A program made the translations under genes and the position numbers. Under the pieces are notes generated by a model. That model did not search any database, had not been told where the DNA came from, and saw only the letters and a program-made list of their open reading frames with translations. 64,000 nt of DNA from a virus (taxonomy: Duplodnaviria > Heunggongvirae > Uroviricota > Caudoviricetes). Positions 39,141 through 64,000 of the stretch are shown in pieces (positions within the stretch are counted from its first letter, which is position 1; each line of letters opens with the position of its first letter). The stretch is from the IMG/VR virus record IMGVR_UViG_3300025413_000008; one strand, written 5' to 3'.

Positions 39141-39800
39141 TTGGGATGTGAAATTGTGACTGATCTTAAAGAAGACGATAATATACTTGTTAGTGAATTT
39201 TACTTCCCATCTGGGATTTATAAGATAAAAAAACCTGAATTCATTGAATCTGCAAAAAAGGTCATGAAAAACAGCCTCAGTTGCTGCAATGAAGAAGTAA
39301 ACGAAATTTATCCAATTTCACATACTTCACATATGTTTGATGAAGAATTGGCGGATTTACTGAATTACATAGCACAGACTGGATGGAACATTCTTGAATC
39401 TCAGGGATATGACATGTCACTATATGATACCAGCGTCACTGATTTTTGGGGACAAAAATTATTAAAACATGGACAACAACACGAACATATTCATGGGTTT
39501 GGTGCACAGTTGGTCGGTTTTTATTTTTTAAATGTTCCAGAAAAAAGTACCAGACCATTCATCGTTGATCCAAGACCAGCAAAAATTCAAATAAATTTGC
39601 CACAGACAAATGGGTCGCTTGCCACCTATGGATCAGACAAAGTAAATTTTGATGTCAACGCTGGCGATTTATTTTTCACTAATGCTTGGTTAGCACATGG
39701 ATTTGAACCTAATGCATCAGATGAGCCATTTGAGTTTATCCATTTTATTATACACGCTGTTCCTACTAAAAATACAAATGAAACTCCGGAGGTAATATGA
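39141..39800 (+). CDS. Cupin/2OG-Fe(II) oxygenase-superfamily-like protein
   Basis: His clusters HEHIHGFG and AWLAHGFEP. About 200 aa, reminiscent of the phage/cyanobacterial 2OG-FeII oxygenase-like family. Weak. Confidence 0.25.
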   Translation: MGCEIVTDLKEDDNILVSEFYFPSGIYKIKKPEFIESAKKVMKNSLSCCNEEVNEIYPISHTSHMFDEELADLLNYIAQTGWNILESQGYDMSLYDTSVTDFWGQKLLKHGQQHEHIHGFGAQLVGFYFLNVPEKSTRPFIVDPRPAKIQINLPQTNGSLATYGSDKVNFDVNAGDLFFTNAWLAHGFEPNASDEPFEFIHFIIHAVPTKNTNETPEVI

Positions 39801-40061: not shown

Positions 40062-41570
40062 ATGACAGTAACTTTTAGTAATTTGAATTTAATTCAAAAT
40101 CCGTTAACAACATACTGGACAAATTATTATTTCGGTATTGCTAATGCATTTTACCAGCCCCAGTTATTGGGGACGGACTCCAATTCAAATGTATATTTTT
40201 CTACGACAACAGGAGGATATATATCAAAAGTAAATAACACGGGTGATACTATATTATGGCAAAATCAGTTCCAAGTACCCTATGCTTATACAAATTACTT
40301 TTCAGCATCTCCCAGCGGAAATTATATAGCATATTCCAGTCCAGTTACAGTAACGGGAACGAATCCTAATCAATTAGCAACATATGGGTTGGCATTATTA
40401 AATTCTTCTGGAAGTGTAGTTTTTAGTTTGACCAGTCCGAGTATTGCTCTGAGTACATCTTCACAGCATGCTATAACACCTAAGGTTACATGCGATGACA
40501 ATGGCAATTTGTATGCGCTTTGGACAAATGGGCTATATAAATATAATTCATCAGGAACATTACAGTGGTCTTATCAATTTTCAACTAACAACACATATTA
40601 TAATACTGGCGTTTCCTCGAGTTTGGGGGATATGTTTGACATTGCAGTTGATCCTAGCGGAAATGTGTATATAGTAGTAGGAAATCCAAATATTCCTTAT
40701 GTCTCGGGTTCAATTCCAATATGCATAAGTAAATTTTCATCCACCGGAACATTGCTTGTATCTAAAGCAATAAGCAAATACACCGGCTCGCCCTATGAAA
40801 CCAACTCATCTTATTGGTATCAGAGTATTGTAAAACTTAATTATGATAGCGTGGCAAACGTATTATTCATTCAGTCAATTGCATACTATAGCTCTTTTCA
40901 AAACTACTATCAAGTAGTAATATCAACTGATACTAACCTCTCATCGTTTACTATATCCCGGCTATCTCAGGGGCTACTAACTGGATATTTCTTTTACCCA
41001 GACGGAACTGGTGGAGGATATATTCCGTTTACTTCGGCGGCCATAACGTTACCCCAATATACCTCTGGATTGCAGATTGCACACTTAAACTCAACTCTCA
41101 TAAATCCAACATACTATCAAATGACAGCATTTCAGACCAATTCCTATGCTGCAGGTGCTTGCTGTTCGGCACCCGGCTTCTCACCAACACGGATCATAAG
41201 CGGAAAAGCCGCCAATACATTGTATTTAAATTATTATACTGACGCATACAACAATGGCACTACAACTGCTTTTGTCTCGTTGGCGTCTACCTCAGGACCA
41301 CCCGCCGCAAACACGTATGCATACTATTATGCAAACAGTGCACCTGTAACCACTAAACAAAATGGAACAACTACTGCAAATGTCGTCTTTAAGGTATCAG
41401 AAACCGCAAACTCTACATATATTCCAACCCCAGTTATAATATCTAACGCTACTATAGCAACAGCCAATACAAGCACATCAAGCACTACGGTGTCATTTTC
41501 AGCAAATACACTGGTAGTGAACAGTTCTCCCGCCTACAGTTATTTTTCTACAGTTACTGGAATCGCCTGA
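40062..41570 (+). CDS. Hypothetical Ser/Thr/Tyr/Asn-rich protein (502 aa), possibly structural or carbohydrate-binding
   Basis: Long ORF with tail-fiber-like composition. Confidence 0.4.
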   Translation: MTVTFSNLNLIQNPLTTYWTNYYFGIANAFYQPQLLGTDSNSNVYFSTTTGGYISKVNNTGDTILWQNQFQVPYAYTNYFSASPSGNYIAYSSPVTVTGTNPNQLATYGLALLNSSGSVVFSLTSPSIALSTSSQHAITPKVTCDDNGNLYALWTNGLYKYNSSGTLQWSYQFSTNNTYYNTGVSSSLGDMFDIAVDPSGNVYIVVGNPNIPYVSGSIPICISKFSSTGTLLVSKAISKYTGSPYETNSSYWYQSIVKLNYDSVANVLFIQSIAYYSSFQNYYQVVISTDTNLSSFTISRLSQGLLTGYFFYPDGTGGGYIPFTSAAITLPQYTSGLQIAHLNSTLINPTYYQMTAFQTNSYAAGACCSAPGFSPTRIISGKAANTLYLNYYTDAYNNGTTTAFVSLASTSGPPAANTYAYYYANSAPVTTKQNGTTTANVVFKVSETANSTYIPTPVIISNATIATANTSTSSTTVSFSANTLVVNSSPAYSYFSTVTGIA

Positions 41571-41572
41571 CA

Positions 41573-41902
41573 ATGCTGAACACGTGTTGGGAAAAAGAAA
41601 ATGGAAAATATCAACTGCGCTGCATGTTTGACCATGTGGGCGATATGTTACCGATGCATACACATAACCCCATAACATTTCATGATATAAAAGTTATCAA
41701 GGGGAAGATAAGAGTGCGTGTTCAGGATTGGGCAGGAGAAATAATCGGAGAAACTGGTGATTTTATTGAATTGGTTCATTTTCAGTGTTTTAAACATCAA
41801 GTTGAGGCACTGGAAGATGATACCGAAATATTAAATATATACAGACATTCAACTCCCGATTTTGAAGAAAATGTGAAAAGAGATAATTCATCGTCCACTT
41901 AA
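41573..41902 (+). CDS. Small cupin-like protein
   Basis: GDMLPMHTHNPITFHDIKVIKG fits cupin motif 1 G(x)5HxH(x)3-4E(x)6G. Confidence 0.3.
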   Translation: MLNTCWEKENGKYQLRCMFDHVGDMLPMHTHNPITFHDIKVIKGKIRVRVQDWAGEIIGETGDFIELVHFQCFKHQVEALEDDTEILNIYRHSTPDFEENVKRDNSSST

Positions 41903-41920
41903 AATTGCTATAAGTAGTAG

Positions 41921-42367
41921 ATGATTAACGTATTCTTATCGGATTTTTATACCCGGCTGCGATCTTGGCACGCTCTTAAAGAAAAATTAACAGAAGCGGA
42001 CTTACAAACTATATGCGTTGAGGTTGACAACTTCTGGCAAAGATGCCCCATAACACCTCACTATCTTCACCCGGCAGACATTGAAGATTGGCCAAATCCA
42101 TGGGAATTGCTCAAAGACAATGACTACTGTCACTATGGCAGAGCACTCGGAATGATCTACACATTATTGCATTTGGGTATCAAAAACATTGACTTAGTGG
42201 ACGCAATAGACTATTGTGATGAACATGCTGTATTAGTCTTAGTTGACGACGCAAAATATGCGCTTAACTACTACCCCAACTCAGTGTTAAATATAGACCT
42301 AACTGAATTTAAAATCACAAGATTTATTGACATAAAACCATTAACAAAGAAAACAGGTAAAGAATGA
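41921..42367 (+). CDS. Hypothetical protein (148 aa)
   Basis: ORF that overlaps the nrdA start. Confidence 0.35.
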   Translation: MINVFLSDFYTRLRSWHALKEKLTEADLQTICVEVDNFWQRCPITPHYLHPADIEDWPNPWELLKDNDYCHYGRALGMIYTLLHLGIKNIDLVDAIDYCDEHAVLVLVDDAKYALNYYPNSVLNIDLTEFKITRFIDIKPLTKKTGKE

Positions 42368-44685
42368 TTAACGTAACCAAACGATCAGGAAAAGTCGTAC
42401 CACTGGACTTAGAAAAGTGGCAAGCACAGATTACAAAAATTTGTGCAGGAATAGCAGATGTAAGCCAGTCAATGGTAGAAATTAAAGCACAACCAAACTT
42501 TTTTGATGGCATTACTACTAGAGAAATTGACCAAATCACACTAAGAGCAGTAGTTGATTTGATTGACGCAGAGTCTAATCCTGACGTAGGTCACACTAAT
42601 TATCAGTATGTTGCCGGGAAACAGAGATTGTCTATGCTTCGCAAGGATGTTTATGGACAATTTGATCCTCCTCACCTATATGATATTGTAAAGAAAAACA
42701 TATCTGTTGGACTTTATACGCCTGAACTCCTAGAATGGTATTCTGAGGATGAATGGAACAAAATGAATGATATTATTGATCATTCAAAAGACGAACAGTA
42801 TTCATATGCGGCAGTTGAGCAACTTATTGAAAAATATCTTGTTCGCAATAGAGCCACTAAAGAAATTTATGAAACGCCTCAAGTCAGATATATTATTGCA
42901 GCAGCAACGGTCTTTCATAAAGAAGAGCCAAACACTGCAAGAATGCGCTATGTAAAAGATTACTATAATGCTGCTTCTGATGGTTTATTCACTTTGGCTA
43001 CTCCTGTTCTTGCTGGTCTTGGTACTCCCACAAAGCAATTCAGCAGTTGTGTTCTTATTCGTAGCGATGACGATCTGGACTCAATTTTTGCTTCAGGACA
43101 AATGATGGCCAAGTATGCCGGTAAACGTGCTGGCATTGGACTAGAAATTGGAAGACTTCGCTCGCTTGGATCACCTATTCGTGGCGGCGAAATTATGCAT
43201 ACTGGCATGATTCCCTTTCTTAAGAAATGGTTTGGCGATTTACGATCTTGCTCACAGGGTGGCATTCGTAATGCTTCATGCACAGTTTGGTTTCCTATTT
43301 GGCATCATCAATTTGACGATCTTATAGTGCTTAAGAATAATCAGGGAACAGAAGAGACCCGAGTCCGCCACATGGATTACGGAGTGGTTCTATCAGGTTT
43401 CTTCTGGCGAAGATTTAAGAACAAAGAGAACATCACCTTCTTTGATCCTAACGAAGTTCCTGACCTTTATGAGGCGTTCTATTCAAACACTGCTAAATTT
43501 GAAGAACTCTACGTAAAGTATGAAAAGCGTAAGGATTTACGCAAGAAGGTAATGAGTGCCGAAGAAGTCTTCAAGAGCGGCCTTCTCAAGGAGCGTACAG
43601 ATACTGGTCGCATATATTTAATGAATATAGATAATGTGATGAATCAAGGTCCATTTGATCCTGAATATCACAGTATCTATCAGAGCAATCTCTGTGCAGA
43701 AATAACCTTACCATCACGCCCATTTAAGAATCTTGAAGATGAAAATGGCAGAATTTCCCTTTGCACTCTTGGTAGTATAAATTGGGGAGCATTTAGAAAT
43801 CCAGAAGATATGCGTAGAGCATGTCGTCTTTTGCTGCGTAGTCTGAATAACATTCTTGACTATCAAGACTTTCTATCTATCCAGTCAAAACTTTCCAATG
43901 ATGAAATTCGGCCTATTGGCATCGGGATCACCAACCTTGCATACTGGCATGCCAAGCGCGGATTGAAATATGGAGAAAAGGATGCGTTACAGGAAGTCAA
44001 GTCTTGGATTGAACATCAAACATATTATTTGATGGAAGCTAATGTTGAACTTGCCAAAGAACGCGGTAAATGTATTGACTCTGATAAAACTCGTTATGGT
44101 CAGGGAATTTTTCCATGGGAACTTCGCGCAAAGGGTGTAAATGAATTAGCCGATTTCACACCTGAACTTGATTGGGAAACCCTACGTGAAAACATGAAGC
44201 AATACGGCGTTCGCAATACTACTGTTGGAGCAATCGCACCAGTTGAATCATCATCGGTTGTTATTAATTCAACCAATGGCATCGCAATGCCAATGAGTTT
44301 AATATCCATCAAGGAATCAAAGGCAGGATCGTTTGTTCAGGTAGTTCCCGATTATCATATACCCAAGGTTCGTAAGAACTATCAATTGATGTGGGAACAG
44401 ACGGACTGTGTTGGATATCTAAAGACAGCAGCGGTACTGGCTGCATACATAGATCAGTCCATATCTACTGATACTTTTTATTCTCCTAAGCATTTTCCTG
44501 ATCGTAGGGTTCCTACTACGCTTATTGCAAAAAATTTAATGCTATTCGCCAAATGGGGTGGAAAAACAAATTATTATAGTCTTATTGATAAGCGGGGGTC
44601 CAAAGAAGAAGCCGATGACGCACCTGGCATGTTAGAACCTATTGACTTTGATGATGACGGGGATTGCGAGAGTTGTAAGTTGTAG
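42364..44685 (+). CDS. nrdA: Ribonucleotide reductase class Ia large subunit NrdA
   Basis: N-terminal ATP-cone-like region. Active-site NLCAEI. C-terminal Cys pair DGDCESCKL. Confidence 0.85.
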   Translation: MINVTKRSGKVVPLDLEKWQAQITKICAGIADVSQSMVEIKAQPNFFDGITTREIDQITLRAVVDLIDAESNPDVGHTNYQYVAGKQRLSMLRKDVYGQFDPPHLYDIVKKNISVGLYTPELLEWYSEDEWNKMNDIIDHSKDEQYSYAAVEQLIEKYLVRNRATKEIYETPQVRYIIAAATVFHKEEPNTARMRYVKDYYNAASDGLFTLATPVLAGLGTPTKQFSSCVLIRSDDDLDSIFASGQMMAKYAGKRAGIGLEIGRLRSLGSPIRGGEIMHTGMIPFLKKWFGDLRSCSQGGIRNASCTVWFPIWHHQFDDLIVLKNNQGTEETRVRHMDYGVVLSGFFWRRFKNKENITFFDPNEVPDLYEAFYSNTAKFEELYVKYEKRKDLRKKVMSAEEVFKSGLLKERTDTGRIYLMNIDNVMNQGPFDPEYHSIYQSNLCAEITLPSRPFKNLEDENGRISLCTLGSINWGAFRNPEDMRRACRLLLRSLNNILDYQDFLSIQSKLSNDEIRPIGIGITNLAYWHAKRGLKYGEKDALQEVKSWIEHQTYYLMEANVELAKERGKCIDSDKTRYGQGIFPWELRAKGVNELADFTPELDWETLRENMKQYGVRNTTVGAIAPVESSSVVINSTNGIAMPMSLISIKESKAGSFVQVVPDYHIPKVRKNYQLMWEQTDCVGYLKTAAVLAAYIDQSISTDTFYSPKHFPDRRVPTTLIAKNLMLFAKWGGKTNYYSLIDKRGSKEEADDAPGMLEPIDFDDDGDCESCKL

Positions 44686-44693
44686 AGGCTAGA

Positions 44694-45383
44694 ATGGTGA
44701 TAAATACAGTTGCCGATCACGATACTGATAATATCTACCGGCTCTATAACACTGAGGAGTTACAGCAAATGTATTTAGATAATATTCCTGCCTATGTCTA
44801 TTATATTAGACATATACCTACTGGCAAGTTTTACTATGGTTCCAGATATAATCATATAAAGAAAGGCACATTGCCTGAAGATGATCTTTGGACATCATAT
44901 TTCTCATCTTCTAAAGAAGTGAAAAAGTTGATACAAGAAACAGGGAGCAGTTCGTTTGAAACTGTGATATTGTTTAAGGACTCAAATCCCGAACTTTGTT
45001 TTGAGTTTGAACAAAATATCATTAAAGAATATATAGCAGACACACTATGTATCAACAAACGATACTTCAATACCGCTAGTGGCAAATCATCATATTGTGT
45101 ATTCGGAAAAACTTTGTCATCAAAAGGAAAACCGAAAACAGAAGAAACTAAACAGAATATGAGAAAACCAAAATCAGTGTCTCATAAAGAAAACATTAGA
45201 AAAGCACAACTCGCAAACGGGGGCAATGGACCAAAGAACCACAGCGAAGAGTCAAAGTTGAAAAATGGAGACACGCACAGGCTTTTGATACGAGAAAAAG
45301 TAACTTGTCCGCATTGTAACAAAACGGGCGGCGCAATCGCAATGCCAAGATGGCATTTTGATAACTGTAAGGAAAAGAAGTAA
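44694..45383 (+). mobile_element. GIY-YIG homing endonuclease inserted between nrdA and nrdB
   Basis: AYVYYIRHIPTGKFYYGSRYN contains GIY and YIG. C-terminal CPHCNKTGGAIAMPRWHFDNCK. This is the position where T4 carries mobE. Confidence 0.65.
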
Positions 45384-45386
45384 ATC

Positions 45387-46520
45387 ATGTCTAAAGATCA
45401 ATACAATATCAGTAACGTTCCTAACTATCTAAAACGAAAGATGTTCTTGGATGGTGTAGTGACTGTTCAGCGATTTGAAGAATATCGTCAGCCCAAGCTT
45501 GCTAAGTTTGAAGAAATGCAGCGTGGATTTTTTTGGGTTCCCGAAGAAGTTAATTTATCTAAGGATGCCGGAGATTTTAAAGATTCCAGCGATACTGTAC
45601 GTCATATCTTTACTGCTAACTTATTGAGACAAACTGCATTAGATAGTATTCAAGGCCGCGCCCCGGTACAAATATTCTCTCCTGTTTGTTCTATTCCAGA
45701 ACTGGAATCATTGGTTTTAATATGGTCATCATTCGAAACAAATATTCACAGTCGCTCGTATTCACACATTATTCGCAATATCTACAATGTGCCGAAAGAA
45801 GTATTCAACACTATCCATGACACTCAGGAAATCATTGATATGGCTGCTAGTGTAGGTAAGTATTATGACGATTTACATGTGCTGAATTGCCGCAAGGAAC
45901 TGGTAGACAACTTTACAGGAGGCAATAAAGCTTGGGCAGATGCTATGGCCGTTCCTGAACAAGAGCACATTAATGCTATTTGGTTGGCACTTCATGCCTC
46001 CTATGCACTTGAAGCATTCCGCTTCATGGTATCATTTGCGACATCACTGGCAATGGTTGAGAATAAGATTTTCATGGGCAATGGTAACATCATCAGCTTG
46101 ATCCTACAGGATGAACTTCTACATAAAGAATGGACTGCTTGGATGATCAATCAGGTTGTCAAGGAAGACCCGCGATTCGTAACTGCTAAGACTACGTGCG
46201 AACAGGAAGTGCGAAAGATTTACGAAGATGTTATTCGTGAAGAAAAAGAATGGGCAAAATATCTTTTCAAAAAGGGTCCAGTTATCGGACTTAATGAACG
46301 CATCATGGTAGATTTTGTTGATTATAATGCAGTAGATGCTCTTAAACAGATCGGTATGAAATACTGGAATCCGGCACCAAAATCTACACCTATTCCATGG
46401 TTTAACAAGCACATGGACACATCTAAAAAGCAAACTGCCTTGCAAGAGTCAGAAAGCACATCATATGTTATTGGTATTATGTCTGACGTTCTTGACTACG
46501 ACGAACTTCCTGATCTTTGA
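45387..46520 (+). CDS. nrdB: Ribonucleotide reductase small subunit NrdB
   Basis: Ferritin-like di-iron protein directly following nrdA and the endonuclease. Carries E..H and HKEW-type motifs. Confidence 0.7.
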   Translation: MSKDQYNISNVPNYLKRKMFLDGVVTVQRFEEYRQPKLAKFEEMQRGFFWVPEEVNLSKDAGDFKDSSDTVRHIFTANLLRQTALDSIQGRAPVQIFSPVCSIPELESLVLIWSSFETNIHSRSYSHIIRNIYNVPKEVFNTIHDTQEIIDMAASVGKYYDDLHVLNCRKELVDNFTGGNKAWADAMAVPEQEHINAIWLALHASYALEAFRFMVSFATSLAMVENKIFMGNGNIISLILQDELLHKEWTAWMINQVVKEDPRFVTAKTTCEQEVRKIYEDVIREEKEWAKYLFKKGPVIGLNERIMVDFVDYNAVDALKQIGMKYWNPAPKSTPIPWFNKHMDTSKKQTALQESESTSYVIGIMSDVLDYDELPDL

Positions 46521-46567
46521 TTGACATCATACAAAAAATATGGTATGATGTGAATTAAGGAGAATTT

Positions 46568-47359
46568 ATGAAGAATGGTAACAGCGTAATCCTCAATACA
46601 ATTATTGAGGATTTGCGAGACGCGGATGGTGTTGTGATTCTTGCAGGAGCAGGCATGGGCGTAGATTCTGGTATTCCAGATTTTAGGGGAAACTCTGGAA
46701 TCTGGACAGCAGAGAAAGATGCATTCATCAAATATGCAACTGCTGACAGTTTTCATAATGCCCCATTAGACTCTTGGAACTTTTACATAAACAGATTTCT
46801 TATGTATAGTGAACTCTCACCTCATCGTGGGTATTATGAATTATTAAAATTGCCAAAAGATATTTTTGTCATAACTAGTAATGTGGATGGGCATTTTATC
46901 AAAGCAGGATATGATCGTGACAGACTATATGAAATTCATGGAAACTTAGAATATGTTCAATGTAGCCATGGATGTTGTGCAGATATTAAGCCTATGCCAA
47001 AATTTACACAAAAACTAACCCACATAGATGAAATACCAACGTGTCCACGCTGTCTTGCGGTATACCGACCATTAGTAATGATGTTCAATGATCCATGGTT
47101 TATTCCCTATAAGGTCAATGAGCAGGAACGCAATTATCTGAACTGGGAAAAGGATAAGAAAAAAATTATCGGGATTGAAATCGGTGCAGGTTTGGCAGTT
47201 CCAAGCATAAGAATGATGGGTGAAGAAAGAACAGACAGATTAATTCGTATCAACCCACATGATTATGCCATTAATCGTGCTTCTGATGTGTCAGTGCCAA
47301 CCGGAGCATTGAATGGAATTGATGTGGTTATGAAATTATTTAACGGAGAAATAGAATGA
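46568..47359 (+). CDS. Sir2-family NAD-dependent protein deacylase (sirtuin)
   Basis: GAGMGVDSGIPDFRG (canonical sirtuin NAD-binding motif). Catalytic HG. Zn-ribbon cysteines CSHGCC...CPRC. Confidence 0.7.
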   Translation: MKNGNSVILNTIIEDLRDADGVVILAGAGMGVDSGIPDFRGNSGIWTAEKDAFIKYATADSFHNAPLDSWNFYINRFLMYSELSPHRGYYELLKLPKDIFVITSNVDGHFIKAGYDRDRLYEIHGNLEYVQCSHGCCADIKPMPKFTQKLTHIDEIPTCPRCLAVYRPLVMMFNDPWFIPYKVNEQERNYLNWEKDKKKIIGIEIGAGLAVPSIRMMGEERTDRLIRINPHDYAINRASDVSVPTGALNGIDVVMKLFNGEIE

Positions 47360-47586
47360 AAGCAGTAGTATGGTCACGTGATAATTGCACTTATTGCACA
47401 CAGGCAAAGGTGCTTTTGACACAAAAGGGTATTGAATTTGAAGAACGTAAGATCGGTGAGGGATATACAAAAGAAGACCTTCTGGAAGCCGTTCCTGCCG
47501 CTCAAGCAATTCCGCAGATATTCATTGACGGTGAGTATGTGGGCGGCTTCAAAGAATTACGCAATAAGTTAACAGAAGTATTATAA
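47356..47586 (+). CDS. Glutaredoxin (NrdC-like)
   Basis: CTYC active site in a 76-aa thioredoxin-fold protein, in the nrd neighbourhood. Confidence 0.7.
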   Translation: MKAVVWSRDNCTYCTQAKVLLTQKGIEFEERKIGEGYTKEDLLEAVPAAQAIPQIFIDGEYVGGFKELRNKLTEVL

Positions 47587-47596
47587 AGGAAAAATA

Positions 47597-47908
47597 ATGA
47601 AGCATTTATCAGATTTAATTGGTCACGTGGTAACACTCAAGCTTGCGTCAGGAGAAGAATTGGTTACTAAAATTCTTGATATTCAGAATGGTGAAGTATT
47701 AATTCACGATCCACTAAGCGTGGCACCGGGTGCACAGGGTATTGGGCTTGTGCCAAGTTTATTTACAGCAGACCCCAAGGCCGATACAAAGCTCAATCTT
47801 AATAGCGTTGTGATTTATGCTCTTACTGATGAATCAGTAAAGAATAAATATATTCAGGCTACAACAGGATTGGTAATTCCCGATACTAAAAAGTTGATCC
47901 TCGGATAA
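47597..47908 (+). CDS. Hypothetical protein (103 aa)
   Basis: ORF with an RBS. Confidence 0.35.
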   Translation: MKHLSDLIGHVVTLKLASGEELVTKILDIQNGEVLIHDPLSVAPGAQGIGLVPSLFTADPKADTKLNLNSVVIYALTDESVKNKYIQATTGLVIPDTKKLILG

Positions 47909-47917
47909 GGAAACATA

Positions 47918-48184
47918 ATGGCGCAATTATCACGTAAGGGCGACCAGAATCAGGCTGGCGGCAAAATTATTAAGGGAGCATCAACCGTGTTCGCAAATGG
48001 TATTGCCGTTGGATTGCATGTAAGTGATATTACACCACACGGTGATGGGCCACATGCTGCCGCAAAAACTACTGACGGAAGTCCGACTGTTTTTGCAGAA
48101 GGAGTTGCCGTATTGCGTGTTGGATCAGGAGATACTTGTGGACATTCTATTTCACAAGGAAGCCCAAATGTTAATTGCCCATAA
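47918..48184 (+). CDS. PAAR-repeat spike-tip protein (gp5.4-like)
   Basis: TVFANGIAVGLHVSD...PH and TVFAEGVAVLRVGSGDTCGH are PAAR-like repeats with a His/Cys Zn site. 88 aa. Confidence 0.55.
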   Translation: MAQLSRKGDQNQAGGKIIKGASTVFANGIAVGLHVSDITPHGDGPHAAAKTTDGSPTVFAEGVAVLRVGSGDTCGHSISQGSPNVNCP

Positions 48185-48193
48185 AGGAATAAA

Positions 48194-51064
48194 ATGGCGG
48201 ATTCAGGTAATCAAAGCCCGTTAGGGATAAACGTATTAGGGTCAGTGTTGAACAACACTGGTTTAACTATTAATCCGGTAGCATCAGGCTATATGGGATC
48301 AAGCAAAACCAATGATTCCTATCAATTCGGTAGTATAATATCAGATACGGCATTGAGATTGTTGACATTTTCTATCAATGATGGATATAACCGAGGTCCT
48401 GCAAACGGTAATGCAACCCTAAGCAATGCCACATATAACAACTTAATTTCAATTGGAAGTTCATCTATTCCTGCTTTAGGAAATTCAGTTCCTCCCACAT
48501 ATGTAGTAAATGATCCTGCAAGTGTATGGGCTGGCCAAGCAACTTCTGGGTATGGAATCTCTGGTAATACTGGACAGGGACAGAGCGCGACATGGCTACC
48601 GTATGACACCAGTAATCCGAACATGTCCGTTACTCAATGGGGATACATAAGACTTCATGCGCTTCAAGCATGGAATGAGTTTAATTGGAATGCGACAAGT
48701 GTAACTCAATCCATACCAGACTATAAAGAATTTTGCTCATCGTTGATTACATTGAATGGAACAATGAATTCATCAAATAAATCCATAACCGCAGCGAGCA
48801 ATGCCAATACCTTCCTGAACGGCACATACAGTAATATGAACGATTTGATCAGTGCGGATGTTTCTGGAGTTAATTTATCAACTTTAACGTTTGGTGAAGA
48901 TTTAATAAATTTGGGTAATGCATTTGATTTAAAAAACATCGCCACTTTCGGATTACCATCAAATTTGCTTGTTAATTTGAGTAAAAATTCAGCAATTACC
49001 TCAGATTTGAATTTGGCATTATTATCTGCTGGAATGAGCACTTCTGAAATATCAGACATCGTTTCTGGAAAATCTGCAAATGTTATAGCTAGTCAGGAGC
49101 AAATGATATATGGTGCATTTCTGATTATTGCTGGGGAAAATCTAAAAACAATTTTGGCCGCATTACAGTGTAAAATACAAGGATTAACTACACTTGCTGA
49201 TTTATTAAATGTGAAAAAACTATTTCCAACTAGCTATTCATCATTAACAGTTCCAATTTATAATGGTGTTATGGGATTACCAACGAACAGTAAGACATAC
49301 TATTTAATATATATAAATGATGGAGTAAACCCTGCGATAGACACACCCATCATTCAAAGCTATGTGGGAACAATCATTCCGGCAGGAATTCCGCCAACAT
49401 TTTCAAGTACCCTAAACCCGTCAAATTATAATCAACTTCCAACTGGATTTGCGTCATATCTCGTTAATATTATCCCATACGATCAAGCACTTAGTGCTGG
49501 TGCATTTTCATATTCTATGCAACAAATACGAAATATTAAGAATTGTAATATTCAAAAATTTGCTAAAGTCGTAAAAGGAATTGAAAACACTTCCGACTTA
49601 CCTTTGGTTGCGGGAACAAGTAAACCAACGGATCAAACATCAAACGATATGGTCATCAGTGTCACTGCATTAGGTTCTGGACCAAATGGGACTTATACCA
49701 TGTCGGATTTCTTCGGATGCATGTCTGGTCTACCCTATTCATGGCAGCTAATACAGCAGAGAATCACACAGCTTCAAACCGCAAAATTATACAATATCTA
49801 TCAACAGATGTTATTAGCAGTAGAATGGGAACAGGCTACCGCAACGGTGCAATATACTACCAGCGTTATTGGTGGCACTACGTATTATACTACGACAGGC
49901 GTAATAATTAATGCTCCGGGCGGCGGATACGGCAGAGGCGGAGCACCAGCACCATCAATTACCATCTCTGATGGGTCAACTGCAACGTGCATTATAGATA
50001 CGAATGATACTAATGCGGGGTCAAACGACACTGGCACCTATGGAAGAGTAACCTCCATAACATTTGGAATTGCAGGAACACCGGGCACAACCATTCCTAC
50101 TGCAACAATTCAGGCTCCGCCAACAGCCGCCCTTCCCATTAATTCAGACGGAAGTGTTCCAACATCGGGAACAAATACTGCTTCTGGAACATCTGGATGG
50201 GCCACCATGAACACCGTAGTTCAGGGATATATTGATCAGGCAAATGCCGAAATTACAAACATTCAGCAAACTAATCCCGAAACATCTGTTTATTTACAAA
50301 CTTACTGGAATACGTGTGGTTCTCAGCTTCTGATTGAACAGCGAGCAAGATATACGAATTTGGTTCCAGTTCAGATTCCTAAAAATAATTTCCTTAACCC
50401 CTATCCATCGTCACTTGGTTTTTTCGTTGATTCTGTGCCATCAATGGCTCAAGATACTGGACCCCACATGAGTGCACAGACTCTTGAAGCAATCAGTGAT
50501 TTAAATACATTAGGTGGCCAAAGCCTTATCGCAATGATGAGACAGGAAAGAAACCAGTCAAGATTGCAATCTGTAGGCATTGACTTAGATAATAATATAC
50601 CCGGAACTTTGAGTCCATCACAGATTAAAACTCTCATAACAAATGGAACAATAGCAGGGGCAGTTACCGGCATTACAAGCCCTAATGGAAATGTTTATAC
50701 AAATCCATCTTGGGCAACAAATTTGCAAAATGATGTTACGGTTGGTCCTTCTCCTTTGGGAATATACCAGCCTACTACTGGTTTCCAGCCAACAAGTAGC
50801 GTAACTACGGGAGACATTACTCAGATACTAAATGGAACCAGCAATCCTGTAGTAAATTCTACTGTACCAGTAGGTCCTACTGCCACTATTGCTCCACCAA
50901 ATTCTGTAGTAATTATTGCTCCTCCTTCTGATCAAAATCCAACCAATCTTCCACCGAATCTTGATCCAAACTTTACGAACAGCACTTTGCTTCCCGCATC
51001 ACCGAGTGTGGCCAACGCAATTCATCATGTGACTACTTGCAACTGTGACTGTTGGATTTCTTAA
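48194..51064 (+). CDS. Large structural protein (956 aa), likely tail/baseplate-associated
   Basis: Asn/Ser/Thr/Gly-rich. Immediately follows the PAAR gene. C-terminal CNCDC. Confidence 0.4.
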   Translation: MADSGNQSPLGINVLGSVLNNTGLTINPVASGYMGSSKTNDSYQFGSIISDTALRLLTFSINDGYNRGPANGNATLSNATYNNLISIGSSSIPALGNSVPPTYVVNDPASVWAGQATSGYGISGNTGQGQSATWLPYDTSNPNMSVTQWGYIRLHALQAWNEFNWNATSVTQSIPDYKEFCSSLITLNGTMNSSNKSITAASNANTFLNGTYSNMNDLISADVSGVNLSTLTFGEDLINLGNAFDLKNIATFGLPSNLLVNLSKNSAITSDLNLALLSAGMSTSEISDIVSGKSANVIASQEQMIYGAFLIIAGENLKTILAALQCKIQGLTTLADLLNVKKLFPTSYSSLTVPIYNGVMGLPTNSKTYYLIYINDGVNPAIDTPIIQSYVGTIIPAGIPPTFSSTLNPSNYNQLPTGFASYLVNIIPYDQALSAGAFSYSMQQIRNIKNCNIQKFAKVVKGIENTSDLPLVAGTSKPTDQTSNDMVISVTALGSGPNGTYTMSDFFGCMSGLPYSWQLIQQRITQLQTAKLYNIYQQMLLAVEWEQATATVQYTTSVIGGTTYYTTTGVIINAPGGGYGRGGAPAPSITISDGSTATCIIDTNDTNAGSNDTGTYGRVTSITFGIAGTPGTTIPTATIQAPPTAALPINSDGSVPTSGTNTASGTSGWATMNTVVQGYIDQANAEITNIQQTNPETSVYLQTYWNTCGSQLLIEQRARYTNLVPVQIPKNNFLNPYPSSLGFFVDSVPSMAQDTGPHMSAQTLEAISDLNTLGGQSLIAMMRQERNQSRLQSVGIDLDNNIPGTLSPSQIKTLITNGTIAGAVTGITSPNGNVYTNPSWATNLQNDVTVGPSPLGIYQPTTGFQPTSSVTTGDITQILNGTSNPVVNSTVPVGPTATIAPPNSVVIIAPPSDQNPTNLPPNLDPNFTNSTLLPASPSVANAIHHVTTCNCDCWIS

Positions 51065-51067
51065 TAT

Positions 51068-51703
51068 TCAGTAATTTATAGAAATGAAGTGATCTAACAG
51101 TTCAACATCGTCTTTGCTTGCTGGCCTTCCGATATCTGTAAAAAACACGCAGTTTTGTCTAGGGAATACCATCGTTTGAGGCATGTAAACTATAACCTCT
51201 TTTTGACTAGTCATTTCAGTGACGGGTTTAGCGTCACGATCAAATTCTACTAAATCAATATACACATTCAAGTCTTTAGTGGGCGCAGAAAGAATTACAT
51301 ACGGTCTATTCCATCCATGCATAAACTCAATCACTTCCTCAATTGATGTTGACCAACTGACTAAGGGAAAAGATGGATCGGTGTGTATTGTTAAGTCTTC
51401 AGCATCTACTTTTTCGGGAGAAATAGTTATTCCACGAAATAAAACTTTCTGATAACACGGAAATCTTGATGCTTCTTTTTTGAGTGCCATCAAAATTGGC
51501 GTAGCTTTTTCGGTCTCTCCCATACCCCACAAACAAAGAGCATCTTCAAGTTCTCCAATGACCCCTTCATTTCTAATAGGTGATTGGCTCAGTCTTCCGC
51601 GCCTTTTGCCAGACAAAGGATCATCATTATCAATGGCACTTTCAAGAAGTTCATATATTCGCATCTTGTATTTATCTATCTCCAGTCTAAAATCACTTGA
51701 CAC
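51068..51703 (-). CDS. Hypothetical protein with an R-S-E-like ADP-ribosyltransferase signature (Alt/ModA/ModB-like?)
   Basis: VLFRGI (Arg), VSWSTSIEE (STS) and SQKEV (QxE) in plausible order and spacing. Lone minus-strand gene in a plus-strand block. Confidence 0.25.
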   Translation of the reverse strand: MSSDFRLEIDKYKMRIYELLESAIDNDDPLSGKRRGRLSQSPIRNEGVIGELEDALCLWGMGETEKATPILMALKKEASRFPCYQKVLFRGITISPEKVDAEDLTIHTDPSFPLVSWSTSIEEVIEFMHGWNRPYVILSAPTKDLNVYIDLVEFDRDAKPVTEMTSQKEVIVYMPQTMVFPRQNCVFFTDIGRPASKDDVELLDHFISINY

Positions 51704-51753
51704 GCAAATTCCTTTAGTCTATACCCAAAACAGATTCAAAGGAGATTGGTAAA

Positions 51754-52215
51754 ATGCGCATTAAAGTTGAGTATGAAGAGGATTGCGTCCACTCGTATTC
51801 CGAGGACAAGCAGTATGGTGAATGGGAAGAACGGTACGAGAGCCGTGTAACCAAAGCCTACCAGATCGCAGACGATGCCGATGTTCCTTATCGCAGCGAA
51901 TCGTTTGTCGTTCCCGATGATGCTGAATATGTCTATGTGGTATACATGATTTATGACACTGGGGATAGCTTCGGTCGCGCCTACGGCAAGATTGATATTC
52001 TCCATGCCACCATTTCGGAATCTGAAGCGGACAGGCTGGCCAAGAAGGTTACTGCGGACTCCGTTTCATATACCATCAAGTTCAAGGACGACTTCGGGCG
52101 TGATATTTCGATCAACAACGCCGGGGCAGGCTATTTCGAAAGCATTCAGTATGCCGGAGTCGAACGCTTTGCCATCGGGACTGGAATTTCCAAGAATCGT
52201 TATTACATCAACTGA
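51754..52215 (+). CDS. Hypothetical protein (153 aa) in a GC-rich island
   Basis: ORF with about 48-50% GC against a backbone of about 38-40%. Confidence 0.4.
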   Translation: MRIKVEYEEDCVHSYSEDKQYGEWEERYESRVTKAYQIADDADVPYRSESFVVPDDAEYVYVVYMIYDTGDSFGRAYGKIDILHATISESEADRLAKKVTADSVSYTIKFKDDFGRDISINNAGAGYFESIQYAGVERFAIGTGISKNRYYIN

Positions 52216-52228
52216 TTAGGAAAAAAAT

Positions 52229-52483
52229 GTGAAATTTGATTGTATTGGGCGTAAACTTAAAGTTGGCGATTATGTATCTTTCTTAATGTATTGGTCAGAT
52301 CAAAAAATGACCGTAGGTAAAATTACCAGACTGTGCAATTTTAATGTCAGGGTAACTGCTGATGCATCTGATTATTGGACAGACAAAAAAACCGATATGA
52401 AAAATTATTATGTTAATCCCTCATTTACCACGAAGATTGAAGACGGTCCCGATTTGTTGAAATACTTGATCACAAAGGATTAA
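52229..52483 (+). CDS. Hypothetical protein (84 aa)
   Basis: ORF only. Confidence 0.3.
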   Translation: MKFDCIGRKLKVGDYVSFLMYWSDQKMTVGKITRLCNFNVRVTADASDYWTDKKTDMKNYYVNPSFTTKIEDGPDLLKYLITKD

Positions 52484-52485
52484 AA

Positions 52486-52725
52486 ATGAACTTGAACGTA
52501 ACTGAATCAAAGTCAACGACTCGCTACAACGATATCTCATCAGTATATGCTGATCTGATTGAACCTGTGGTAGAAAACGAGCGTTATACTCGCAGTTGTG
52601 ATTATTTTTCCTGCTTTAGTAATCATTATTCAGTGGGAAAAGAACGCGAATTTATTGAGGCACTTGACAGTGCCAATCCCGGTAAGTATAAGGGCTATCG
52701 CATCACATGGTCGGATGCAAACTAA
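52486..52725 (+). CDS. Hypothetical protein (79 aa)
   Basis: ORF only. Confidence 0.3.
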   Translation: MNLNVTESKSTTRYNDISSVYADLIEPVVENERYTRSCDYFSCFSNHYSVGKEREFIEALDSANPGKYKGYRITWSDAN

Positions 52726-52736
52726 GGAGATTTCAA

Positions 52737-52982
52737 ATGAATTTGTTTCTGAATGGTCGTAAGGTTCTGTTTGCAGAAGTTGAAGGAGTTGACTTCAAGG
52801 ACTATCCCAAGTTTTGCGATGCGTATATCTCCTATGCTGAGTTTGAAAACGGTGCACCCTTGAATGATCGTCAGCTTGATCAACTTACGGAAGAAAACTA
52901 TGATTTTGTTCATGCTGAATGCATGGAACAAATGTTTGGTGCTGGTGATAATCATCGTGAATACACGAGTGAATGTGGCTAA
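52737..52982 (+). CDS. Hypothetical protein (81 aa)
   Basis: Internal Met with an AGGAG RBS. Followed by a 10-bp hairpin at 52995-53024. Confidence 0.3.
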   Translation: MNLFLNGRKVLFAEVEGVDFKDYPKFCDAYISYAEFENGAPLNDRQLDQLTEENYDFVHAECMEQMFGAGDNHREYTSECG

Positions 52983-53047
52983 AAAGTTATTGACCCTACA
53001 TTCTTTTGAGTGTAGGGTCACTTCACATTTAAACGAAAGAGATTGTC

Positions 53048-53263
53048 ATGAATAAGTATGAAATCGCCACTGCCGCCGTTGATGAATATATTTCTCTTCT
53101 TCATAAAAAATATGATGGAGATGAATTCAAATATCCTCGTATTGCAGGACATTTTCAAGAAGCTCTTATGTGGGTGGCGACGGACGGTGTGGAAGCCATT
53201 CAAATCCGCATTAACCGACTGAAAGCAGAACAGGAAACGATTGATGCATTGCGCCAAACGTAA
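53048..53263 (+). CDS. Hypothetical protein (71 aa)
   Basis: ORF only. Confidence 0.3.
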   Translation: MNKYEIATAAVDEYISLLHKKYDGDEFKYPRIAGHFQEALMWVATDGVEAIQIRINRLKAEQETIDALRQT

Positions 53264-53336
53264 AATACATATTACAAAATTTTTAATATATTGAAAGAAT
53301 GACTATTCATAAATAATACTCTTACAGGAGTAAAAT

Positions 53337-54176
53337 ATGAAAAAGTTACTGACGGTATTTGTGATGCTATTAGCATTATCGGTATCATTTACAACACCAT
53401 CATTTGCATGGAATCAGAGAGCACCTCTCCCACTTCAGCAATGTTCAATCCACGCACCTTTTGGTGCACCACAGTCTTCTCGTCCAGTAGAATTTATCTG
53501 CCGCGAAGCATATCTCGTGGGATTTGATCCCACTTCAAAAATTCCAGAATATGTTCAATGGACACTTACTCCACAGGCTGCATTGGGATGTGTGCCTCGT
53601 TCAAATGCATTTGCTACTGATATGAGCATTCAAGGAAGTGCAACTCCACAGGACTATGCAAGAACGGGTTACGACAAGGGACACATGGCACCAGATGGTG
53701 ATCAGTCGTGGAACCCGCAAGTTGAACTTGAATCATTTCTGATGACTAACATGACGCCACAGGCAGGTTCGTTAAACCGTGGTATTTGGAAATTACTGGA
53801 AACGTCATTTCGTGGTTGGGTATTTCAACAAAATCGTCCATTTACCGCAATTTCTGGTGCAATTTATGGACCATCTGATAAACGTATCGGAACTGGCGTG
53901 GTAGTGCCGCATGCGTTCTACAAGATTGTTATTGATGATCAAACTGGTTATGTTGCTGGGTGGTATTTCCCACATGTTGCACCATACCCCAATCTTGGTA
54001 ATGATTTAACTCGTTATCGTAGATCAATCGCGCAGATTGAACAAGAATCTGGTGTTCGTTTTGGGCTTCCAAACAATGCACAGGAAGTTCCTGTTGGTAA
54101 AGAATGGAGTGTAAATTTTGGTGCACTCACACAGTCCAAAAAAGCCAAGTGTGGCGCAAACGCATCTATTGACTAA
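53337..54176 (+). CDS. Secreted non-specific DNA/RNA endonuclease (Serratia NUC family)
   Basis: Signal peptide MKKLLTVFVMLLALSVSFTTPSFA. DKGHMAPDGD matches the DRGH beta-beta-alpha-Me catalytic motif. Confidence 0.6.
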   Translation: MKKLLTVFVMLLALSVSFTTPSFAWNQRAPLPLQQCSIHAPFGAPQSSRPVEFICREAYLVGFDPTSKIPEYVQWTLTPQAALGCVPRSNAFATDMSIQGSATPQDYARTGYDKGHMAPDGDQSWNPQVELESFLMTNMTPQAGSLNRGIWKLLETSFRGWVFQQNRPFTAISGAIYGPSDKRIGTGVVVPHAFYKIVIDDQTGYVAGWYFPHVAPYPNLGNDLTRYRRSIAQIEQESGVRFGLPNNAQEVPVGKEWSVNFGALTQSKKAKCGANASID

Positions 54177-54190
54177 ATTGGTAGGGCAGT

Positions 54191-54385
54191 GTGGCATTTA
54201 TATCACACTGCCCATTAAAGGATAACATAATGAATCTAAATCGCCTGAATAGTGGACGTAAACTTATTGACTTGCTCGTGAAAAACGGTAATATCAAAAA
54301 CATGGGATGGACGCCTCAGCAGCAACAAGAGAGGCTGGACACCCAACAAAACGTTCATAACCCTAACTCAAGGAAAAAAGAGTGA
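54191..54385 (+). CDS. Hypothetical protein (64 aa)
   Basis: ORF only. Confidence 0.25.
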   Translation: MAFISHCPLKDNIMNLNRLNSGRKLIDLLVKNGNIKNMGWTPQQQQERLDTQQNVHNPNSRKKE

Positions 54386-54636
54386 GCGATGATTTCAAAC
54401 GTTCTTCTCGCCGCGCCCGAACAGCAAATGCAATTGCGCGCCAAAAACGTATAGCAAAATCAGCGGGCGTAAATCATAATAAGAATCAGCCTCACCGATA
54501 TGCAAAGATGCATGCGTTAAATTGCGGTGATTCAAGCTGTGTAATGTGTGGCAATCCGAGGAAGTTTTTTAACGAGCCTACACTACAAGAAAAAATATCC
54601 ATAGAAAAATTCAAAGAAGACACAAAAAACATTTGA
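54382..54636 (+). CDS. Small basic Cys-containing protein (84 aa)
   Basis: CGDSSCVMCGNP could form a zinc finger. Confidence 0.3.
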   Translation: MSDDFKRSSRRARTANAIARQKRIAKSAGVNHNKNQPHRYAKMHALNCGDSSCVMCGNPRKFFNEPTLQEKISIEKFKEDTKNI

Positions 54637-54686
54637 CATATTGGCGATTAGTGTGTAATTCTCCCGTGTGTTAAAGGATTTTATAA

Positions 54687-55088
54687 ATGTCTGAACAGCC
54701 AATCATGACTATTACAGCAGATGGAACCAAGAAATGGTATCTGAACGGCAAATTCCATCGCGAAGATGGACCCGCTATTGAATATGCAGATGGAGCCAAG
54801 GAATGGTATCTGAAGAACAAACTCCATCGCGAAGATGGACCTGCTGCTGAATACTCAGATGGTTCCAAGTGGTGGTATCTGAATGACAAGCTCCATCGCG
54901 AAGATGGACCTGCTGCTGAATATGCAGATGGTTCCAAGTGGTGGTATCTGAATGACAAGCTCCATCGCGAAGATGGACCTGCTATTGAACGGGTAGATGG
55001 CTCTAAATGTTGGTATCTAAATGGAGAAGAAATAGATCAATTGGTTTTCTGGGTCACTACCAAGGAACGAATGAAGGAAACTTCTTGA
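54687..55088 (+). CDS. MORN-variant repeat protein with 4-5 tandem 23-aa repeats
   Basis: Repeat DG(S/A)K(W/E)WYLN(G/D)KLHREDGPA(A/I)EY, encoded by tandem 69-bp units. Confidence 0.5.
   Translation: MSEQPIMTITADGTKKWYLNGKFHREDGPAIEYADGAKEWYLKNKLHREDGPAAEYSDGSKWWYLNDKLHREDGPAAEYADGSKWWYLNDKLHREDGPAIERVDGSKCWYLNGEEIDQLVFWVTTKERMKETS
54762..55030. repeat. Tandem 69-bp repeat, about 4 copies; the two central copies differ at 2 nt
   Basis: Units start at 54762, 54831, 54900 and 54969 (gaagatggacc...ctccatcgc). Confidence 0.85.
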
Positions 55089-55154
55089 CATATACCCCTT
55101 CCAATGCTATACATGAGTTCTCTTAAACACATAAAAAGAGAGAAAAGAAAGAAA

Positions 55155-55361
55155 ATGAAAGTATTCCTAATGTTCGCGAGTATTCCTCTCGCGTTGTTTA
55201 TCATGTTTTTCGGTCTTCCACATTTGTTTGCGGGTTTAATCAACTCACATACAGATGCGGGGCTTATCGCAATGGTCATGCTGGCTTGCGGTATTGTCGG
55301 TTTTGTTGCCAGCAAAGTGTATAACCTCGTAAATAAGGAAACTAAGAATGAAAATTCGTAA
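55155..55361 (+). CDS. Small membrane protein (2 TM)
   Basis: Hydrophobic stretches FLMFASIPLALFIMFFGL and LIAMVMLACGIVGFVA. Confidence 0.35.
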   Translation: MKVFLMFASIPLALFIMFFGLPHLFAGLINSHTDAGLIAMVMLACGIVGFVASKVYNLVNKETKNENS

Positions 55362-56178: not shown

Positions 56179-56462
56179 TGCGTAAGATTAGCCTGATCTT
56201 GATTGGCTTGTCTGTAATGTTGACGGGATGCGGTTCTGCTCCCGTCAACACTTCTACGGAAAACTCCACTACAACACCAACTGATCCTAATAATCCGGAT
56301 AGTTTTGAGATTACTCGTATATGTCACGATGGCACCAAAATTTACCATCTCGTCGGCGGTAATGCTAATGGTAGATATGCACTATGGATGGGAAATGGTG
56401 ACAACTATGCTTGGGTTCTTGTGCCCGAAGGTGCATCTCCTGAATCGGTATGTCTACAATAA
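56178..56462 (+). CDS. Small lipoprotein (94 aa)
   Basis: Signal plus lipobox LTGC. Translationally coupled to the SPFH gene. Confidence 0.4.
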   Translation: MRKISLILIGLSVMLTGCGSAPVNTSTENSTTTPTDPNNPDSFEITRICHDGTKIYHLVGGNANGRYALWMGNGDNYAWVLVPEGASPESVCLQ

Positions 56463-63152: not shown

Positions 63153-63206
63153 CTTGTAGAGGGATAGACCTTCTATATAAAAACGCTAACAAGGAGTTTG
63201 TAGCAA

Positions 63207-64000
63207 TGGAAAAAGAATTTGACCTATTGGTCTTTGTGGGACGTTTTCAGCCCTTTCATAAAGAACATAAGCGTGTCATTGACATCGCACTAGAAAAATC
63301 CCGACATGTATTGATTCTCGTAGGTTCGGCAGGTAAGGCTCGCACGATCCGCAATCCGTTCACCTTTGATGAACGCAGGGATATGATCATTGAATCTTAT
63401 GCAGACGACTGGGATGCAATTGATCCTGAGGGCAAGACCGAGCGTCAACTGATTATTCGTCCCCTTTATGACAAGACCTACAATGATGCTGCTTGGGTCA
63501 AGCAGGTTCAGGAACTTGTCAAGGACACTACTTTGCAGGTAATGAATCCCGGTGGATTCATGGCATCTGGCTACAACGATGCTAAGGTAGGACTGATCGG
63601 CGCCAGTAAGGATGGCTCAAGCTACTATCTCAAGCTGTTTCCGCAGTGGAAGTCGGTGAATGTCGAGATTGAAGCTGACGTTCATGCTACCGAAATTCGC
63701 GAGACATATCTGGATCTTCCTCAGCCGCTTTGGGTTATGAATAATGTTGCAAAAAATATTCCTAATAGCGTGATGAAATTTTTAATTGACTTCGCTGAAA
63801 AGGAAGAATACAACCAGCTTCGACAGGAACTGCATTTTGTTCGAGCATATAAGAAGCAGTGGGAAGTTGCGCCTTATCCAGTAAAACATGCCACCGTTGA
63901 TACCGTGGTTGAACAGAGTGGTCACATTCTTCTCGTGAAGCGTAAGGCAGAACCGGGCAAAGGACTGTGGGCGCTGCCTGGCGGTCATCTGAACGAATAC
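63207..64000 (+). CDS. Bifunctional NMN adenylyltransferase / Nudix ADP-ribose pyrophosphatase (NadM-Nudix, NatV-like). Partial; the gene runs off the window end.
   Basis: LLVFVGRFQPFHKEH is the nucleotidyltransferase (H/T)xGH-type motif. C-terminal GKGLWALPGGHLNE is the Nudix box. About 47% GC. Confidence 0.65.

Follow-up and report, generated by a model that had tools for sequence, protein, structure and literature searches.

A gene in an uncultured jumbo phage encodes a Zn-containing sirtuin that is probably an active, stand-alone class III-like NAD+-dependent lysine deacylase of the CobB/Sir2Af1/SIRT5 kind, carried by a large myovirus as an accessory gene of the moron or auxiliary-metabolic type. 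The gene (46568..47359, + strand, ATG to TGA, 263 amino acids [aa]) lies in a 64,000-nucleotide (nt) stretch of tailed-phage DNA from IMG/VR record IMGVR_UViG_3300025413_000008, the whole of which we call the window and whose numbering we use throughout. Annotations of phage sirtuins go back twenty years, and our literature search found no report of their biochemical characterization. Those of cultured phages (KVP40-like and T5-like) are divergent, and both phage sirtuins as such and their pairing with NAD+ salvage were already known. What is new is a well-conserved, Zn-containing clade bearing a Tyr-x-x-Arg (YxxR) element, found so far only in uncultured jumbo phages and with distant relatives in metagenome-assembled genomes (MAGs) of giant viruses, together with the observation that its location beside the nrd genes, which encode ribonucleotide reductase (RNR), is a cargo hotspot. 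All features of a class III deacylase are retained in the clade, down to the Tyr/Arg pair that recognizes succinyl-lysine, and this makes the clade a clean candidate for the erasure of host lysine acylation by a phage.

Genes for a major head protein, a portal, a tape-measure-like protein and a baseplate hub mark the window as that of a large myovirus. A megablast search of 50,697 GenBank phage records found no near-identical phage for positions 45387-47600, and an identical Sir2 protein is encoded on more than 20 metagenomic contigs from several samples, the longest of 279 kb, from which we conclude that the host genome of this gene is an uncultured jumbo phage.

Sequence, fold and conserved residues of the phage sirtuin

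The 263-aa protein matches the Pfam SIR2 family (PF02146) at 64.1 bits against a cut-off of 24 (E = 2e-17) and PHROG 2162 'Sir2' at E = 4.9e-38, and it aligns end to end with the archaeal Sir2Af1 (PDB 1ici/4twi; E = 8.5e-16 for 1ici by HMMER). An AlphaFold2 (AF2) model built from a 39-sequence alignment (pLDDT 93.7, pTM 0.90) has the Rossmann domain and small Zn-binding domain of the sirtuin family, and in a Foldseek search against the PDB the top 50 matches of the model were sirtuins without exception (50/50; TM 0.6-0.77), with Sir2Af1, SirTM, Hst2, SIRT5, SIRT3 and Sir2Tm among the leading ones. A first-pass annotation made earlier from the sequence had described the open reading frame (ORF) at 46568-47359 as a canonical Zn-containing sirtuin, and this is borne out by the completeness of the gene, its Pfam SIR2 match, its Zn module and its deacylase-sirtuin fold.

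Residue conservation was assessed in an alignment of 39 relatives, whose identities to the window protein span 33-73%. Invariant positions comprise G27, A28 and G29, N105, D107, H124, G125, C132, C159, C162, R167-P168, F173, D175 and N229, and conservation is at least 90% at C136, the cofactor-loop pair F39-R40, F72, Y73 and R76; the retention of catalytic, Zn-binding and substrate-loop residues across this range of identity points to purifying selection on an enzyme. The NAD+-binding loop GAGMGVDSGIPDFRG spans residues 27-41 (46646..46690; this and the following elements are all on the + strand), and the clade has G31 there in place of the Ser of the canonical GAGxS. It is followed by the TSNVD motif at residues 103-107 (46874..46888; canonically TQNxD), in which N105 and D107 are invariant and Ser replaces Gln clade-wide, and by the catalytic H124-G125 within EIHGN (46937..46942, the H124 codon being 46937-46939), which aligns to the HG of Sir2Af1 and CobB. 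The Zn-binding module C132-x3-C136 ... C159-x2-C162 (46961..47053) has CPRC as its second Cys pair and Cx3C spacing in its first pair as against the usual Cx2C, and the F173-N-D175 loop (47084..47092), aligned to the WFGE of Sir2Af1 and CobB, corresponds to FGE, the substrate-binding loop of deacylase sirtuins. The NAD+-binding loop, catalytic His and four Zn-ligating Cys (C132, C136, C159 and C162) on which the first-pass annotation relied were thus all located, and the key catalytic residues, whose loss on alignment had been named as the ground for abandoning that annotation, are in place, with GAG, N105, D107 and H124-G125 invariant in the 39 relatives.

Upstream of the catalytic center, Y73-x-x-R76 (46784..46795) corresponds to the class III element for negatively charged acyl-lysines, and aligns both to Y92/R95 of E. 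coli CobB (direct alignment) and to the Tyr/Arg pair of Sir2Af1 (HMMER). In Sir2Af1 this pair, Y64/R67, binds the succinyl carboxylate, as does Y102/R105 in SIRT5 (Ringel et al., PMC4253809). The phage protein shares with the class III enzymes Sir2Af1 (PDB 1ici, 4twi), human SIRT5 and E. coli CobB the combination of Rossmann domain and Zn module, the GAG/NxD/HG motifs, the Cys4 Zn site, Tyr-x-x-Arg and a single-domain size of ~250-280 aa, and its best sequence, profile and fold matches are to these enzymes, although it is only 23-24% identical to them and is phage-encoded. Scored against solved sirtuins, the clade profile gave 114 bits for Sir2Af1 (E = 7e-32), 104 for SIRT5, 98.8 for SirTM, 98 for Sir2Af2, 92 for Sir2Tm and 79 for CobB, a ranking that class III enzymes top by small margins.

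From these conserved residues and established sirtuin chemistry, we infer a reaction in which NAD+ would be held in the Rossmann cleft by the GAG loop, N105 and D107, while the acyl-lysine of a protein substrate would dock via the F173-x-D175 loop. H124 would serve as general base, the acyl oxygen would attack C1' of the nicotinamide ribose, and nicotinamide and 2'-O-acyl-ADP-ribose would be released. The Y73/R76 element predicts activity of the desuccinylase/demalonylase type and would favor succinyl-, malonyl- or glutaryl-lysine in addition to acetyl-lysine. Its targets would most likely be host proteins that are abundant and acylated, perhaps joined by proteins of the phage, and deacylation during infection would restore them to their unmodified, typically active state.

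The sirtuin gene occupies a cargo hotspot in the nrd module

The gene order in this part of the window is nrdA, a GIY-YIG endonuclease gene, nrdB, Sir2, grx, and genes for a PHROG-527 protein, a PAAR protein and a 956-aa protein. The first-pass annotation had the sirtuin gene embedded in an nrd/glutaredoxin operon, and as a statement of adjacency this is correct. The upstream flank is nrdB (45387..46520, + strand), encoding the class I RNR small subunit (Pfam Ribonuc_red_sm, 138.6 bits), and the downstream flank is the glutaredoxin gene grx (47356..47586, + strand; Pfam Glutaredoxin, 46.4 bits), whose start and the Sir2 stop share 4 nt (ATGA); relatives with Sir2 at 60-73% identity retain the nrdB-Sir2-grx order. 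Core membership of the operon, however, is contradicted by an nrdB-anchored comparison of the 80 closest IMG/VR loci, whose NrdB proteins are 73-88% identical and which share the synteny o148-nrdA-nrdB-grx-p527-PAAR: Sir2 is present in one of them (L013) and missing from the other 79. Its absence from nearly all close relatives and the variable content of the slot that it fills identify it as cargo and not as a core operon member.

Two such hotspots flank nrdB in the window, at the nrdA|nrdB junction (44686-45386) and the nrdB|grx junction (46521-47355), as seen by comparison with relatives L058-L136. In the window, the first of these slots, downstream of nrdA (42364-44685, + strand), holds a GIY-YIG (SegE-like) homing endonuclease gene (44694..45383, + strand; Pfam SegE_GIY-YIG, 36 bits; PHROG 314 homing endonuclease). 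The nrdB|grx spacing is 12-15 nt in most relatives and 838-1449 nt in those with cargo, and over all loci the gaps range from 12 to 1449 nt at nrdB|grx and from -1 to 2437 nt at nrdA|nrdB. About a dozen unrelated insert families occupy the two slots, among them a class II aldolase (Aldolase_II; 34 loci), HNH and GIY-YIG homing endonucleases, serine hydroxymethyltransferase (SHMT), Fe/Mn superoxide dismutase (SOD), an alpha/beta hydrolase, a PGDYG-like protein, unknowns and Sir2 itself. Because both junctions are cargo hotspots, adjacency to RNR genes alone is not proof of functional coupling, and we interpret the position of Sir2 as an insertion into one of the two slots, a position that does not point to a dedicated RNR partnership.

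The same neighborhood nevertheless raises the alternative of a dedicated regulator of deoxynucleoside triphosphate (dNTP) synthesis, in which the sirtuin would deacylate phage or host RNR subunits, or the adjacent glutaredoxin, so that RNR is switched on in infection. The nrd module holds every Sir2 copy found in the lineage, and three arrangements occur (at nrdB|grx, at nrdA|nrdB, and after a divergent nrdA without nrdB or grx beside it), and the gene overlaps grx here and the nrdB stop in relatives L001-L003. A syntenic relative (L030:3174-3935) has a second sirtuin between nrdA and nrdB that is 36% identical to the window's and 63% identical to the bacterial-type P0131, and in a rough neighbor-joining (NJ) tree it groups with that different, bacterial-type sub-lineage; sirtuins would thus have been captured into the nrd module independently at least twice. 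There is also a precedent in human RRM2, where acetylation of K95 inactivates RNR and SIRT2 reverses it (PMC6642173). Yet 79 of the 80 closest relatives run nrdA-nrdB-grx without any sirtuin gene, the same junctions carry unrelated cargo, and Sir2 persists without nrdB or grx in L017-L019, and the Sir2 homologues of other jumbo contigs, at ~50% identity, lie away from nrd genes. Moreover, the large Sir2-free relatives (contigs of 176-360 kb) yielded no hit in an IMG/VR-wide exact-pattern scan for the Sir2 motif, from which a divergent copy could escape. We therefore consider a dedicated regulator of RNR unlikely. The more specific proposal that repeatedly captured sirtuins (from at least two sub-lineages, in three positions) deacylate, for example desuccinylate, RNR subunits or glutaredoxin and thereby exert post-translational control over dNTP supply seems to us improbable; if true, RNR deacylation by a phage sirtuin would be the phage parallel of SIRT2 control over human RRM2.

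Regulatory signals around the gene are compatible with the preferred reading of an accessory deacylase gene. The 47-nt spacer between nrdB and Sir2 contains a sigma-70-like promoter match, TTGACA-17 nt-(TG)TATGAT (46521..46549, + strand), which fits the consensus at 11/12 positions with an extended -10, is a consensus match only, and is the best such match on either strand of 41500-52000. A Shine-Dalgarno (SD) sequence, AAGGAG (46557..46562, + strand), can be read 5 nt upstream of the Sir2 ATG. The promoter match is missing in L001-L003, where Sir2 overlaps the nrdB stop. Both signals fit a self-contained cassette, and together with the overlap at the grx start they suggest that Sir2 would be co-expressed with the nucleotide-metabolism genes while having a promoter of its own and a strong SD sequence.

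Alternative activities and comparison with known sirtuins

Several observations weigh against a class III-like deacylase carried simply as cargo. The clade departs from the canonical motifs of the NAD pocket (GAGMG for GAGxS, TSNVD for TQNxD and IEIGAG for G(T/S)S), and it departs further with FND for FGE and the Cx3C first Zn pair. All NCBIfam deacylase cut-offs are missed, with the best score at 119.9 against 243 (NF001753) and NF040867 at 106.6 against 320, a shortfall that leaves CobB-like function not guaranteed for a protein so far placed by its sequence and modeled fold. SirTM (5a3a) is also among the top fold and profile matches, the literature search found no characterized member of this phage sub-family, and the capture of sirtuins into the nrd module at least twice hints that location may matter. 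We interpret the scores below the NCBIfam cut-offs and the clade-specific motif changes as the mark of a distinct sub-family close to class III and not of a CobB equivalog. Assignment as a CobB equivalog was rejected on the NF040867 and PRK00481 model cut-offs, both of which were missed.

The first-pass annotation had left open whether the protein is a deacylase or an ADP-ribosyltransferase. In the second case its targets would be either host proteins, modified as by SirTM, or RNA, from which it would remove 2'-phosphates, the role predicted by Iyer et al. (2022; PMC9503650) for the main clade of phage sirtuins. In that paper RNA repair is the predicted function of most viral sirtuins, which are argued to be ADP-ribosyltransferases. 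SirTM (PDB 5a3a) has, like the phage protein, a sirtuin fold with a Zn domain; it is a high structural match, ranking fifth in the fold search, and reaches the 98.8 bits already given with the clade profile. The non-canonical substitutions in the NAD pocket also speak for this alternative, and an orphan gene with a triad like that of ADP-ribosyltransferases (ARTs) lies nearby. On the other hand, in class M sirtuins such as SirTM, QG stands where other sirtuins have the catalytic HG, and the protein is associated, by operon or fusion, with a macrodomain, together with GcvH-L and LplA2 (PMC4518038), whereas H124-G125 is invariant in this clade and Pfam searches from ~10 kb upstream of Sir2 to the window end found no macrodomain, GcvH-L or LplA2. 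Identity with SirTM was rejected on the invariant HG and the lack of a macrodomain neighbor.

The RNA-repair clade of Iyer et al. (Serratia phage BF, rV5, SP15) resembles the present case in consisting of stand-alone phage sirtuins without an adjacent macrodomain, but it is defined by RNA ligase, 2H, cREC, PIN, Nudix and HAD neighbors, none of which is adjacent to Sir2 here, and over ~10-16 kb no RNA ligase, 2H, cREC, PIN or HAD neighbor was found. Phages BF, rV5 and SP15 had no match to the phage sirtuin (tblastn, E <= 1e-5), and neither did the Sir2 genes of T5/KVP40-type phages in the list of Skliros et al. at the same threshold. Membership in the RNA-repair clade was rejected on the missing defining neighbors and the unmatched exemplar phages. 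YxxR and the F-x-D loop point, moreover, to acyl-lysine peptide substrates. The presence of H124-G125 and YxxR and the absence of a macrodomain neighbor favor a class III-like deacylase, so that this half of the earlier either-or assignment is retained and ADP-ribosyltransferase activity becomes a doubtful alternative.

A third possibility is that the protein is an NAD+-consuming effector (NADase) for superinfection exclusion or host shut-off, comparable to the Sir2 domains of ThsA, DSR2, Sir2-HerA and SIR2-pAgo. Sir2 domains often serve as NADase effectors; P0095, the bacterial homologue, is encoded in what looks like a mobile island, along with H-NS and transposases; and a loss of NAD+ could be offset by NadM (and by NadV, if the genome has one). 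The defense NADases (ThsA, DSR1/2, Sir2-HerA, SIR2-pAgo) belong to the same superfamily and likewise use NAD+; the phage protein differs from them in keeping the Zn module and peptide-binding features, including YxxR. PADLOC models matched neither the phage sirtuin (E <= 0.01), nor P0095, nor two fused relatives, and the 263-aa protein stands alone, with no sensor domain and no HerA, TIR, SLOG, pAgo or other sensor or partner gene beside it. A lytic jumbo phage investing in NAD+ salvage would also be unlikely to burn NAD+ constitutively. A defense-type Sir2 was rejected on the negative PADLOC result and the lack of a sensor domain or partner gene. The first-pass view that this is not the degenerate Sir2 of defense systems agrees with the lack of a PADLOC match and with the retained Zn module and F-x-D peptide-binding loop, and we regard an NADase role as highly improbable.

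A close published parallel to the deacylase that we propose comes from the KVP40-like ('schizoT4like') jumbo vibriophages phiSt2 and phiGrn1, where, as here, a sirtuin is found in a large myovirus with nrdAB; those phages also encode NAD+ salvage in the form of NAMPT and NMNAT (PMC5107563). Deacetylation of host proteins and recycling of nicotinamide were proposed for these phages in 2016, and FNE/INP-type motifs were noted (PMC5107563); the idea of combining Sir2 with NAD+ salvage is therefore already in the literature. Differences are nevertheless clear, since the KVP40-like sirtuins are without Zn ligands (PMC5107563) whereas the sirtuin described here keeps all four, and the location of the Sir2 gene is not the same. 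That KVP40-like Sir2 went undetected by tblastn at E <= 1e-5 indicates that the sirtuin described here is a separate lineage, and all Sir2 matches in GenBank phages were below 35% identity.

NAD+ genes and the orphan ORF at 51068

The first-pass annotation had placed a NadM-Nudix gene at 63207 and an ART-like gene at 51068 and had joined them with the sirtuin into an NAD+-centered toolkit. The identity of the first is upheld, with a corrected start: the gene for a bifunctional nicotinamide mononucleotide (NMN) adenylyltransferase/Nudix protein begins at 63206 (63206..64000, + strand), is partial because it runs past the window end, and matches Pfam CTP_transf_like and NUDIX as well as NCBIfam NF003786 (280 bits). 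The full gene of 360 aa is found on sister contig L057, with a NadV/Nampt gene 2.6 kb downstream, and sister contig L056 has different genes at the NadV position of L057. NadM-Nudix is a mosaic gene: up to 63687 the window is 99.6% identical to L056 and L057, after which there is no match and then a 150-nt segment at 86%.

NAD+ reconstitution of the NARP2 type consists of NadV/Nampt and NMNAT (PMC13464706). Of these, the window encodes an NMN adenylyltransferase in its NadM-Nudix gene, a separate locus ~16 kb from Sir2, and NadV occurs in L057 and not in L056. NadM is also found near the nrd module of a Sir2-free relative (L132), which shows that NAD+ salvage is not dependent on Sir2. NadM-Nudix is a possible recycler of the nicotinamide and ADP-ribose (ADPr) products that the sirtuin would release.

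The gene at 51068 is an orphan ORF of 211 aa (51068-51703, - strand) that is missing from relatives L001-L003 and has 2 matches in 5.8 billion proteins. No match was found in Pfam (E < 10), PHROGs, NCBIfam, PADLOC, the PDB (phmmer) or GenBank phages (tblastn, E < 10), and a single-sequence AF2 model, at pLDDT 37, was unusable. The protein does contain an R-S-E-style triad, made up of FRG at 88-90 (R89), STS at 118-120 and QKE at 167-169; this pattern, which was defined after the sequence had been read, arises in 0.07% of shuffles and in 0 others among the 46 window ORFs of at least 100 aa. The term ART-like is thus matched at the level of a motif but not by any profile, family or usable model, and we treat the triad as a lead, not a finding. 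The toolkit as a unit found no support: Sir2, NadM-Nudix and the 51068 gene lie 4-16 kb apart and vary independently among relatives.

Relatives of the sirtuin in other genomes

The closest cellular homologue of the phage sirtuin, at ~40% identity, is a stand-alone gene on a Paraburkholderia chromosome (L010:5001-5834). It sits in a mobile-looking island beside an H-NS-like gene and IS66/rve transposases, a context that is uninformative. Giant-virus MAG contigs (GVMAG; L040-L043, L045 and L051-L054) encode family relatives at 30-35% identity that form their own branch of the NJ tree. Fusions seen in distant relatives (to radical SAM or WYL, or as tandem SIR2) were considered as pointers to function and set aside, as they gave no consistent clue.

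Other features of the window

Downstream of grx, the genes at 47597-51064 (+ strand) for the PHROG-527 protein, the PAAR-motif protein and the 956-aa protein, which has no family, are conserved beside the nrd module in almost every relative. This set is likely a tail-spike or baseplate-tip module, an odd companion for nucleotide-metabolism genes.

Further auxiliary-looking genes of the window encode a 2-oxoglutarate (2OG)-Fe(II) oxygenase (39141-39800), a DNA/RNA non-specific endonuclease with a hydrophobic N-terminus (53337-54176), a Band_7 protein (55348-56178), an AhpC/peroxiredoxin (56613-57155) and a RimK-type ATP-grasp ligase (59515-60408). An Rfam scan of 46000-58000 returned nothing besides a tRNA with a CUA anticodon (amber-suppressor type) at 56517-56591 (+ strand; Rfam tRNA, 55.6 bits), which has an encoded CCA end and was labeled tRNA-Pyl by ARAGORN. 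The AhpC ORF in its longer form overlaps this tRNA, which makes 56613 the probable start of the AhpC gene. TAG serves as the stop codon in 3 of the 58 window ORFs of at least 80 aa, nrdA included.

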